From NCBI RefSeq assembly GCF_003334405.1, contig NZ_QOWM01000004.1: DNA of 64,000 nucleotides; one strand, written 5' to 3'. Source of the DNA: Escherichia coli (GTDB lineage Bacteria; Pseudomonadota; Gammaproteobacteria; Enterobacterales; Enterobacteriaceae). Positions 1,222 through 2,173 of this stretch are shown here, piece by piece; within the stretch, counting starts at the first letter, position 1, and each line of letters begins with the position of its first letter. Below the pieces are notes generated by a model. The model ran no database searches. It worked only from the letters and a program-made list of their open reading frames with translations, and was not told the DNA's origin. The position numbers and the translations under genes were made by a program.

Positions 1222-1677
1222 ATGAAAAACAAATTGTTATTTATGATGTTAACAATACTGGGTGCGCCTGGGATTGCAGCCGCAGCAGGTTATGATTTAG
1301 CTAATTCAGAATATAACTTCGCGGTAAATGAATTGAGTAAGTCTTCATTTAATCAGGCAGCCATAATTGGTCAAGCTGGGACTAATAATAGTGCTCAGTT
1401 ACGGCAGGGAGGCTCAAAACTTTTGGCGGTTGTTGCGCAAGAAGGTAGTAGCAACCGGGCAAAGATTGACCAGACAGGAGATTATAACCTTGCATATATT
1501 GATCAGGCGGGCAGTGCCAACGATGCCAGTATTTCGCAAGGTGCTTATGGTAATACTGCGATGATTATCCAGAAAGGTTCTGGTAATAAAGCAAATATTA
1601 CACAGTATGGTACTCAAAAAACGGCAATTGTAGTGCAGAGACAGTCGCAAATGGCTATTCGCGTGACACAACGTTAA
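1222..1677 (+). CDS. csgB: CsgB, minor curlin / curli nucleator
   Basis: ORF track 1195-1677; trimmed to MKNKLLFMMLTILGAPGIAAAA signal peptide start; imperfect amyloid repeats with Q/N/G/A pattern. Confidence 0.93.
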   Translation: MKNKLLFMMLTILGAPGIAAAAGYDLANSEYNFAVNELSKSSFNQAAIIGQAGTNNSAQLRQGGSKLLAVVAQEGSSNRAKIDQTGDYNLAYIDQAGSANDASISQGAYGNTAMIIQKGSGNKANITQYGTQKTAIVVQRQSQMAIRVTQR

Positions 1678-1717
1678 TTTCCATTCGACTTTTAAATCAA
1701 TCCGATGGGGGTTTTAC

Positions 1718-2173
1718 ATGAAACTTTTAAAAGTAGCAGCAATTGCAGCAATCGTATTCTCCGGTAGCGCTCTGGCAGGTGTTGTTCCTCAGTACGGCGG
1801 CGGCGGTAACCACGGTGGTGGCGGTAATAATAGCGGCCCAAATTCTGAGCTGAACATTTACCAGTACGGTGGCGGTAACTCTGCACTTGCTCTGCAAACT
1901 GATGCCCGTAACTCTGACTTGACTATTACCCAGCATGGCGGCGGTAATGGTGCAGATGTTGGTCAGGGCTCAGATGACAGCTCAATCGATCTGACCCAAC
2001 GTGGCTTCGGTAACAGCGCTACTCTTGATCAGTGGAACGGCAAAAATTCTGAAATGACGGTTAAACAGTTCGGTGGTGGCAACGGTGCTGCAGTTGACCA
2101 GACTGCATCTAACTCCTCCGTCAACGTGACTCAGGTTGGCTTTGGTAACAACGCGACCGCTCATCAGTACTAA
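1718..2173 (+). CDS. csgA: CsgA, major curlin subunit
   Basis: ORF track; MKLLKVAAIAAIVFSGSALA signal peptide, Gly-rich N22 segment, five imperfect repeats (S-x5-Q-x-G-x-G-N-x-A). Confidence 0.95.
   Translation: MKLLKVAAIAAIVFSGSALAGVVPQYGGGGNHGGGGNNSGPNSELNIYQYGGGNSALALQTDARNSDLTITQHGGGNGADVGQGSDDSSIDLTQRGFGNSATLDQWNGKNSEMTVKQFGGGNGAAVDQTASNSSVNVTQVGFGNNATAHQY

Follow-up and report, generated by a model that had tools for sequence, protein, structure and literature searches.

A question raised by this locus is whether the two adjacent genes at positions 1222-2173 of the window, i.e. of the whole stretch of 64,000 nucleotides of Escherichia coli DNA that was analysed, encode proteins built from a genuinely repeated unit, and which part of these proteins serves their secretion. 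Curli are the paradigm of a bacterial functional amyloid and are of importance for biofilms, for the colonisation of hosts and in engineered living materials. Our analysis leaves hardly any doubt that the genes are csgB and csgA of the curli operon csgBAC and that each of them encodes a Sec signal peptide, a non-repeat N-terminal segment (N22 in CsgA, N23 in CsgB) and five curlin repeats, and nothing that we found contradicts this reading. The features are collected in table 1.

Table 1. Features of the csgD-csgBAC region, with positions in the window, strand and the basis of each assignment.
Feature	Positions	Strand	Basis
csgD 5' part, curli/biofilm master regulator	1-467	-	K-12 annotation; start codon CAT at 465-467 (+ strand)
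csgD-csgB intergenic regulatory region, 754 bp	468-1221	.	between annotated genes
csgB, curli minor (nucleator) subunit, 151 aa + stop	1222-1677	+	NF007506; K-12 identity
CsgB signal peptide (putative), aa 1-21, MKNKLLFMMLTILGAPGIAAA	1222-1284	+	read by eye
CsgB N23 non-repeat N-terminal segment, aa 22-44	1285-1353	+	z=-0.3, out of register
CsgB R1, aa 45-66, QAAIIGQAGTNNSAQLRQGGSK	1354-1419	+	stack; z=5.7; model strands E24-31, E36-41
CsgB R2, aa 67-88, LLAVVAQEGSSNRAKIDQTGDY	1420-1485	+	stack; z=6.4; model strands E46-53, E58-63
CsgB R3, aa 89-110, NLAYIDQAGSANDASISQGAYG	1486-1551	+	stack; z=5.7; model strands E69-75, E80-85
CsgB R4, aa 111-132, NTAMIIQKGSGNKANITQYGTQ	1552-1617	+	stack; z=6.7; model strands E90-97, E101-107
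CsgB R5 (degenerate), aa 133-151, KTAIVVQRQSQMAIRVTQR	1618-1674	+	stack; z=4.1, 0/5000 shuffles
csgA, curli major subunit, 151 aa + stop	1718-2173	+	NF007470; K-12 identity; 8ENQ/8ENR
CsgA signal peptide (putative), aa 1-20, MKLLKVAAIAAIVFSGSALA	1718-1777	+	by eye, A-L-A motif; mature PDB chains begin at aa 21
CsgA N22 secretion-targeting segment, aa 21-42, GVVPQYGGGGNHGGGGNNSGPN	1778-1843	+	PDB 6L7C chain S; literature
Published CsgG contact VVPQYG, aa 22-27	1781-1798	+	within N22 (PMC6957492)
Gly-rich tract of the original prediction, aa 27-40, GGGGNHGGGGNNSG	1796-1837	+	inside N22; read from translation
CsgA R1, aa 43-65, SELNIYQYGGGNSALALQTDARN	1844-1912	+	stack; z=6.9; Pfam aa 40-74
CsgA R2, aa 66-87, SDLTITQHGGGNGADVGQGSDD	1913-1978	+	stack; z=6.7; Pfam aa 65-83
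CsgA R3, aa 88-110, SSIDLTQRGFGNSATLDQWNGKN	1979-2047	+	stack; z=7.2; Pfam aa 86-119
CsgA R4, aa 111-132, SEMTVKQFGGGNGAAVDQTASN	2048-2113	+	stack; z=7.1; Pfam aa 114-141
CsgA R5, aa 133-151, SSVNVTQVGFGNNATAHQY	2114-2170	+	stack; z=6.9; Pfam aa 132-151
Putative intrinsic terminator between csgA and csgC: GC-rich hairpin (2192-2215) + U-run	2192-2220	+	RNA fold
csgC, periplasmic curli chaperone and amyloid inhibitor, third csgBAC gene	2232-2564	+	NF007507; K-12 annotation

The identity of the genes can be read directly. The DNA of 1222-2173 is 100% identical to csgB and csgA of E. coli K-12 MG1655, and the RefSeq annotation mapped from this identical locus places both genes, stop codons included, exactly at the coordinates first proposed. 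Both proteins fit their curated NCBIfam equivalog models over the full length of residues 1-151 (CsgB with 270.3 bits against NF007506, cut-off 165; CsgA with 239.8 bits against NF007470, cut-off 160). Because CsgB and CsgA score far lower on each other's model (47.7 and 33.9 bits), the assignment of CsgA versus CsgB is unambiguous, and the gene names given by the original prediction are borne out by the equivalog models, Pfam and the K-12 annotation alike. The csgB/csgA DNA is found in 5383 of 5426 complete E. coli genomes.

Repetition within the two proteins was assessed by ungapped BLOSUM62 autocorrelation of the mature sequences over 70 offsets, in comparison with 2000 residue shuffles in which the composition is kept; the best z of this null across the 70 offsets was 4.7-5.0. 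CsgB peaks at offset 22 (z=8.8), followed by offsets 11 (z=8.3), 44 (z=6.7) and 66 (z=5.6), with offsets 33 and 55 being significant too, and in CsgA offset 45 (z=10.3) is followed by 22 (z=5.8), 23 (z=5.7) and 68 (z=5.1). The CsgB values at 22, 11, 44 and 66 and the CsgA values at 45, 22, 23 and 68 were reached by 0 of 2000 shuffles, i.e. self-alignment, the check that had been proposed for these proteins, reveals a periodicity well above that of shuffled sequences.

Curlin subunits of Enterobacteria carry five tandem Curlin_rpt units, each about 22-23 residues long. Here, too, each protein contributes five units, and all ten can be stacked with no gap inside any of them, their lengths being 23, 22, 23, 22 and 19 aa in CsgA and 22, 22, 22, 22 and 19 aa in CsgB. 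This stack makes the regular spacing of Gln, Gly, Asn and Ala, which had been noticed in the translations, explicit: Gln7 and Gln18 occur in 10 of 10 units, and Gly9, Asn12 and Ala14 in nine of 10. The curlin core S/N-x5-Q-x-G-x-x-N-x-A-x3-Q with its QX10Q kernel is thus present, R5 of CsgB being the degenerate exception, which keeps Gln7 and Gln18 and is without Gly9, Asn12 and Ala14. Each of the ten units was also compared with its four siblings, and in no case did any of 5000 shuffled versions score as high as the unit itself; z is lowest for CsgB R5 (z=4.1) and lies at 5.7-7.2 for the other nine. The Pfam profile Curlin_rpt (PF07012), the second check that had been proposed, matches both proteins, with five matches in CsgA and four in CsgB, three of them in either protein having E<=0.001 and E values going down to 1e-10; this PF07012 search of CsgB gave no match over R5. 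Five imperfect repeats of about 22 residues in both proteins, as originally claimed, are therefore found by autocorrelation, stacking, profile and unit shuffles, but for CsgB the phrase 'five repeats' holds only with the qualifier of a markedly degenerate R5, whose degeneracy and role in the interaction with CsgF are already published (PMC10192328). The two peptides quoted as examples, SELNIYQYGGGNSALALQTDARNS and GGGGNHGGGGNNSG, both occur in the CsgA translation, and the former corresponds to aa 43-66, i.e. R1 plus the first residue of R2. N22 and N23 were also considered as a sixth, degenerate repeat but rejected, both segments being out of register (z=1.3 for CsgA N22 and z=-0.3 for CsgB N23).

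In CsgB, the putative signal peptide has a basic N-terminal end followed by a hydrophobic core and the cleavage motif A-A-A (MKNKLLFMMLTILGAPGIAAA followed by A), and the resulting boundary between aa 21 and 22 agrees with the order of signal peptide, N23 and R1-R5 described in the literature (PMC11005368). A single-sequence AlphaFold2 model of mature CsgB, which is of moderate quality (mean pLDDT 68.7, residues 1-20 below 50), has ten predicted strands in five pairs that are exactly in register with R1-R5. A Foldseek search of this model against the PDB gave no significant match (best E=0.068), with beta-helix ice-binding proteins, FapC and, at rank 11, the CsgA fibril 8ENQ (E=0.3) among the non-significant ones. 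In the literature, CsgB has been predicted to form a left-handed solenoid that deviates from CsgA by a C-alpha RMSD of 0.88 A (PMC10192328).

At the DNA level the same units are much less conspicuous. Tandem Repeats Finder, applied to 1100-2300 with a minimum score of 30, reported no arrays, because the repeats are too diverged in DNA. Relative to codon shuffles, csgA shows weak periodicities of 135 nt (z=7.2) and 69 nt (z=4.9) and csgB of 33 nt (z=6.5) and 66 nt (z=5.5), and seed-extension finds one 51-nt family with 67-73% identity. The absence of arrays, together with this only weak DNA periodicity, marks the repeat as a feature of the protein level. To this extent the original statement that it is not captured by a plain CDS call stands, but it is true only in a trivial sense, since for decades the curlin repeat has stood in textbooks and, as PF07012, among the curated families of Pfam.

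Could the apparent repeats nevertheless be an artefact of a Gln/Asn/Gly/Ala/Ser-rich composition without any true unit? These five residues do make up 59% of mature CsgA and 55% of mature CsgB, and the failure of Tandem Repeats Finder to detect a tandem repeat in the DNA would fit such a view. Shuffles that keep precisely this composition, however, peak at z 4.7-5.0 as compared to the observed 8.8 and 10.3, and with every unit also surpassing all of its own shuffles and Pfam E values as low as 1e-10, the residue-shuffle autocorrelation and the per-unit shuffles refute this explanation, to which we assign a practically vanishing probability. Scarcely more credible is the idea that the real gene, or an additional one, is an antisense reading frame overlapping csgB or csgA. 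Mechanical ORF calling does list three such frames on the minus strand (1414-1671, 85 aa; 1727-1936, 69 aa; 1982-2164, 60 aa), but antisense frames of 60-85 aa are expected by chance, it is the plus-strand frames that fit the curated equivalog models over their full length, and RefSeq annotates only these here; the antisense frames were thus rejected as genes.

More delicate is the question of which unit is the elementary one. Each 22-residue repeat could be a pair of motif a and motif b, i.e. of two 11-residue half-repeats that each comprise one beta-strand plus arc of the form N/S-x-hydrophobic-x-hydrophobic-x-Q-x-G-x-x. CsgB argues for this, with offset 11 nearly equalling offset 22 (z=8.3 versus 8.8), with significant offsets of 33 and 55, with a and b halves sharing three to five of 11 residues and with 33 nt as the best DNA period of csgB, but CsgA speaks against it, with a weak offset 11 (z=3.4, reached by 95 of 2000 shuffles) and with halves that have only one to three of 11 residues in common, and what recurs along the fibre axis is a complete turn, which comprises about 22 residues (PMC11005368). 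A half-repeat as the elementary unit therefore appears improbable to us, and the 11-residue half-period adds detail to the description as five repeats without superseding it. For CsgA, a larger unit comes into consideration, namely a block of two units (45 residues, 135 nt) that is present about 2.5 times, with a last expansion in which an R2R3-like pair gave rise to R4R5. Offset 45 is the strongest in CsgA (z=10.3, 34 of 86 residues identical), 135 nt is the best DNA period (49.6% identity versus 29.2% in the null, z=7.2), and R2R3 and R4R5 share 63% of their DNA and 54% of their protein sequence, with other unit pairs at 38-58% DNA identity and with protein identities of 58% for R3/R5 and 50% for R2/R4; moreover, unit lengths alternate (23/22/23/22), as do the turns GGGNG and GFGN. 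Yet R1 is as similar to R2 and R4 as it is to R3 and R5, the alternation could reflect selection on structural or gatekeeper roles rather than recent common descent, and the proposal has a single CsgA sequence as its basis and would leave function unchanged. We give such a block organization somewhat less than an even chance, and that the five-unit array actually arose by duplication of this block, from an R2R3-like pair to R4R5, is a still more tentative suggestion. R1, R3 and R5 of CsgA are the units published as amyloidogenic. If the block duplication did occur, their amyloidogenicity and the alternation of turns would be a relic of it rather than the outcome of five independently tuned units.

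The five-unit array is preceded in CsgA by the segment that the original prediction had linked to secretion, where it had singled out the Gly-rich tract as being needed. Cleavage of the putative signal peptide as read by eye (MKLLKVAAIAAIVFSGSALA followed by G) leaves N22 at the mature N-terminus, and chain S of PDB 6L7C (22 aa) equals precisely this segment, aa 21-42. N22 is the CsgG-targeting sequence and suffices for the export of heterologous proteins (PMC7217966), and the tract does lie inside N22; in this respect the claim points to the right segment. The residues actually seen bound to CsgG, however, are V2-G7 of mature CsgA, i.e. VVPQYG, binding to CsgG by the first six residues alone (N6, GVVPQY) is comparable to that by N22, and the Congo-red phenotype is weakened by the mutation Y6A (PMC6957492). 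The secretion determinant thus sits just upstream of the Gly-rich tract, overlapping with it in G7, the first Gly of the tract, and the useful correction is that CsgG recognition is determined by VVPQYG at the start of N22 rather than by the Gly-rich tract. The DNA of the tract itself contains two degenerate copies of a Q/N-x-G-G-G-G-N turn motif, which it shares with R1 and R2 (family D2).

The surroundings of the two genes are those of the curli locus. csgD is transcribed away from csgBAC and is cut off by the left end of the window; csgE, csgF and csgG of the divergent csgDEFG genes follow beyond this end in the identical K-12 locus, and CsgC downstream fits NCBIfam NF007507 with 171.6 bits (cut-off 75). 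Rfam ES056 matches 523-614 on the minus strand, within the csgD leader. The csgD-csgB intergenic region differs from that of MG1655 by substitutions at 707 and 984, the former being an A-to-G exchange some 90 nt upstream of the point where csgD transcription starts, with an allele that occurs in just three of 5098 matching complete E. coli genomes and that may alter curli regulation in this strain. Downstream of csgA, the RNA of 2171-2235 folds with -23.2 kcal/mol (z=-5.9; 0 of 200 shuffles fold as well), which includes the hairpin and U-run of the putative terminator. A consensus promoter and terminator scan of 400-2700 did not exceed its shuffles in the number of sites, with four promoter-like elements versus 5.8 expected and three terminator-like elements versus 1.8, and missed this hairpin.

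How this architecture would be put to work can be carried over from the literature on the K-12 proteins, which are identical, form Congo-red- and ThT-positive amyloid, and in which CsgB nucleates CsgA at the cell surface (PMC10192328, PMC9900396). Thus, CsgA would be kept unfolded in the periplasm, with CsgC helping, would be recognized through the VVPQYG start of N22 by the outer-membrane channel CsgG and exported with CsgE and CsgF, and would then be templated at the cell surface by its paralogue CsgB, the degenerate R5 of the latter probably being involved in the interaction with CsgF. Each curlin repeat is expected to form a strand-arc-strand unit that makes up one turn of a beta-solenoid, with Gln7, Gln18, Asn12, Ala14 and the alternating small and hydrophobic residues presumably stacking on their equivalents in neighbouring units, and the extracellular curli amyloid fibre would in turn consist of solenoid monomers stacked end to end.

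All of this is in agreement with a repeat architecture of csgB and csgA that is already known, fully described and part of the textbooks: the five imperfect repeats form a beta-solenoid with a strand spacing of 4.8 A (PMC11005368), the strand-arc-strand units of motif a and motif b have been described (PMC10192328), and so have gatekeeper residues in R2-R4 (PMC9900396). As the sequence does not differ from that of the reference strain and both a curated Pfam family and solved structures exist, our confirmation adds nothing to the biology of curli. Its value rather is that of a positive control, in that a diverged repeat of the protein level was recognizable from raw DNA.

In comparison with other systems, the Pseudomonas protein FapC (PDB 9U4U) is likewise a secreted functional amyloid with imperfect repeats (PMC12822426), but its repeat family is unrelated to curlin, with a non-significant Foldseek E of 0.14 and no sequence match. 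Closer is the 363-residue curlin-repeat homologue of PDB 8C50, which matches CsgB in five stretches (E=2.6e-31) and also CsgA (E=1.7e-13); it shares the Curlin_rpt unit with both proteins but has many more repeats in its chain. Curlins whose motifs a and b are nearly the same are classed as centrosymmetric, a Pontibacter korlensis protein being a named example, and E. coli CsgA belongs to the non-centrosymmetric ones (PMC10192328); by its 11-residue autocorrelation, E. coli CsgB is nearer to the centrosymmetric type than CsgA. The E. coli CsgA fibril itself, PDB 8ENQ/8ENR, matches aa 21-151 of CsgA with E=2.7e-79; its chain is a 138-residue recombinant construct of mature CsgA without the signal peptide, and in the cryo-EM structure each turn of a beta-solenoid is made up of one repeat, the strands being spaced by 4.8 A (PMC11005368). 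Finally, K-12 MG1655 shares with the window the neighbours csgD, csgC, ymdA, ymdB, clsC and mdoC, and its record differs at 17 positions in 64 kb, none of them in csgB or csgA. Its CsgA (WP_000771437.1) and CsgB (WP_000791650.1), encoded in csgBAC by DNA that is nucleotide-identical to 1222-2173, have the very architecture found here, i.e. five imperfect units preceded by N22 and N23, respectively (PMC11005368).

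The curlin repeats of csgB and csgA are confirmed as an observation, and their interpretation is supported save for a small correction concerning N22, the non-repeat N-terminal segment of CsgA. Ungapped BLOSUM62 autocorrelation of the mature proteins over offsets 1–70 was compared with 2000 residue shuffles, which preserve the Q/N/G/A/S-rich composition exactly; across all shuffles and offsets, z peaked at 4.7 in CsgA and at 5.0 in CsgB. Above these levels stand the CsgB offsets of 22 (z = 8.8), 11 (8.3), 44 (6.7), 33 (5.8) and 66 aa (5.6) as well as the CsgA offsets of 45 (z = 10.3), 22 (5.8), 23 (5.7) and 68 aa (5.1), i.e. 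the self-comparison proposed along with the original prediction reveals periodicity in both proteins. With unit boundaries set at the conserved Ser/Asn...Gln kernel, CsgA (aa 43–151) divides into units R1–R5 of 23, 22, 23, 22 and 19 residues, and CsgB (aa 45–151) into units of 22, 22, 22, 22 and 19 residues. MAFFT stacked all ten units with zero internal gaps; in this stack, the residues termed Gln7 and Gln18 by their position in the unit are invariant and Gly9, Asn12 and Ala14 occur in nine of the ten, which is the regular Gln/Asn/Gly/Ala spacing that had been described. Identity between units of the same protein is 36–58% in CsgA and 32–45% among R1–R4 of CsgB, with only 21–32% for CsgB R5 and its siblings. 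Every unit matches its four siblings better than all 5000 self-shuffles do, with z values of 5.7–7.2 for nine units and of 4.1 for CsgB R5. Because each unit thus beats all shuffles, and neither N-terminal segment registers as a repeat against shuffles (z = 1.3 for N22, −0.3 for N23 of CsgB), CsgA and CsgB each contain five units, not four or six, and the predicted five imperfect repeats of about 22 aa are borne out in both.

On the NCBIfam equivalog models, CsgB scores 270.3 bits (curated cut-off 165 bits), CsgA 239.8 (160) and CsgC 171.6 (75), with far lower scores for CsgA on the CsgB model and for CsgB on the CsgA model. Curlin_rpt (PF07012), the sole Pfam family found in CsgA and CsgB and the kind of profile whose search had been suggested, gives five matches in CsgA (E 1.3e-10 to 5e-3) and four in CsgB (three near 1e-9), where the last unit, R5, is uncovered by any Pfam match. 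The coordinates first assigned to both genes are base-exact, since the annotated K-12 locus maps csgB and csgA to the same positions, and the mechanical ORF list also contains these two ORFs, of 151 codons each. In csgB the count begins at the MKNKLL methionine, 27 nt inside the longest ORF, which opens at 1195.

Coordinates of annotated and predicted features in the window
Feature	Position	Strand	Basis or remark
csgD	start codon 465–467	−	upstream of csgB, divergent; truncated by left end of window
Rfam ES056 'sRNA'	523–614	−	Rfam; 119.7 bits, gathering score 43
csgB	1222–1677	+	annotated K-12 locus mapped onto window
csgA	1718–2173	+	annotated K-12 locus mapped onto window
Hairpin and U-run	2192–2220	+	RNA folding; between csgA and csgC
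csgC	2232–2564	+	annotated K-12 locus mapped onto window
ymdA	2685–2996	+	annotated K-12 locus mapped onto window
ES036	10709–10751	−	Rfam; usual K-12 place
PyrC leader	19880–19929	−	Rfam; usual K-12 place
rne 5' UTR	41664–42000	−	Rfam; usual K-12 place
SraB sRNA	43861–44029	+	Rfam; usual K-12 place

By megablast, 1222–2173 is matched in 5383 of 5426 complete E. coli genomes and finds no match in 43; many matches, including K-12 MG1655, are 100% identical, and the annotation beneath them is csgB plus csgA. In the same search, five matches lie on plasmid-labelled records and some genomes carry two copies.

In the DNA itself the repeat is much fainter. Tandem Repeats Finder reported no arrays in csgBA DNA even down to score 30, seed-extension found a 51-nt three-copy family in csgA (67–73% identity, spacings of 69 and 135 nt) alongside shorter families, and against codon-shuffle controls residual periodicity appears at 135, 69 and 66 nt in csgA and at 33, 66 and 132 nt in csgB. 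The curlin repeat is therefore an old, diverged duplication that is legible mainly in protein. To this extent it is indeed missed by a plain CDS call, as had been claimed, but ordinary domain annotation does capture it.

The correction concerns secretion. The Gly-rich tract GGGGNHGGGGNNSG (CsgA aa 27–40), originally said to be needed for secretion, lies within N22 (aa 21–42), the correct segment. The part bearing the signal is a different one, because cryo-EM and biochemistry identify the CsgG-bound residues as V2-V3-P4-Q5-Y6-G7 of mature CsgA, with Val3, Gln5 and Tyr6 as key contacts, and the N6 peptide (GVVPQY) binds CsgG about as well as N22; Y6A reduces Congo-red binding (PMC6957492). The DNA of the Gly tract holds two degenerate copies of a Q/N-x-G-G-G-G-N turn motif that also occurs in R1 and R2 (DNA family D2), in agreement with the term 'imperfect half-repeat' used for N22 (PMC11005368).

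Around the two genes, the strong GC-rich hairpin downstream of csgA (−23.2 kcal/mol, z = −5.9) should restrict read-through into csgC; it is missing from the output of a consensus terminator scan. The csgD–csgB intergenic region spans 754 bp. Since the ES056 match sits entirely in the csgD 5' leader, ES056 is probably a family describing the csgD 5'-UTR and not a gene of its own. Position 707 is G in the window and A in MG1655 and strain FORC 064; of the 5098 complete E. coli genomes that match a 71-nt query centred on it, only three, NCTC9064 among them, do so at 100% identity, and the whole 753-nt intergenic query has a 100% match in no complete E. coli genome. If the csgD transcription start is placed from the ES056 end (614) and a leader taken to be 148 nt long, position 707 would lie some 90 nt upstream of it. 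At position 984 the window again has G and MG1655 A; this G allele is an ordinary polymorphism, since natural strains other than this one, FORC 064 for example, carry it too.

From csgD through to ndh, all 64 kb of the window run collinear with MG1655; the two differ by just 16 substitutions and a single 1-bp insertion (99.96–99.98% identity), and csgB and csgA show zero differences. By this sequence comparison, the source of the window is therefore a very close K-12 relative distinct from the MG1655 record compared. The insertion, in an A-run at 18495, lies by our placement some 20 nt 3' of the stop codon of dinI (minus strand), probably in a terminator tail. At 2760 (ymdA codon 26), C instead of G gives CTG (Leu) for GTG (Val) in YmdA, whose resemblance to the FimA N-terminus is weak and sub-threshold (E = 1.3e-4, 22 bits, cut-off 140). 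Annotated ymdB (3091–3624) and clsC (start 3566) overlap by 59 nt (3566–3624) in different frames, and the longest clsC ORF opens at a TTG at 3557.

As a feature, the csgB/csgA repeat is already known in every respect. The paper on the 8ENQ structure divides CsgA and CsgB alike into a signal peptide, an N22 or N23 segment and five imperfect repeats, and describes the CsgA fibril as stacked beta-solenoid monomers with a strand spacing of 4.8 Å (PMC11005368). According to the literature on the identical proteins, each repeat would make up a single turn of the solenoid, featuring Gln/Asn ladders and a steric-zipper core, monomers would stack head-to-tail into fibres, and CsgA would be templated by CsgB at the cell surface. 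Single-sequence AlphaFold2 gives mature CsgB ten strands in five pairs, in exact register with R1–R5, after 20 disordered residues; as the mean pLDDT is moderate (68.7) and a Foldseek search of PDB with this model found no significant match, only the secondary structure is counted as support. By PDB sequence search, the CsgA fibril entries 8ENQ/8ENR match CsgA aa 21–151 (E = 2.7e-79), the 22-mer of 6L7C chain S equals N22, and the 363-residue curlin-repeat protein 8C50 matches CsgA (E = 1.7e-13) and, in five stretches, CsgB (E = 2.6e-31).

In CsgA, the dominant period spans 45 residues, the length of two units: unit length switches between 23 and 22, turn type between GFGN and GGGNG, R2R3 and R4R5 share 63% DNA and 54% protein identity, and protein identity is 58% for R3/R5 and 50% for R2/R4. 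This pattern is compatible with a final duplication of a two-unit block. Separately, gatekeeper residues have been reported in R2, R3 and R4 (PMC9900396). In CsgB, the 11-residue half-period is nearly as strong as the 22-residue one, and a and b half-units have 3–5 of 11 residues in common, versus 1–3 in CsgA. This likeness agrees with published work that treats each curlin repeat as a pair of related motifs, a and b, with arcs between them, and that assigns E. coli CsgA to the non-centrosymmetric class (PMC10192328). Rather than discoveries, the two-unit period and the half-period are refinements of 'five ~22-aa repeats', consistent with the published picture.
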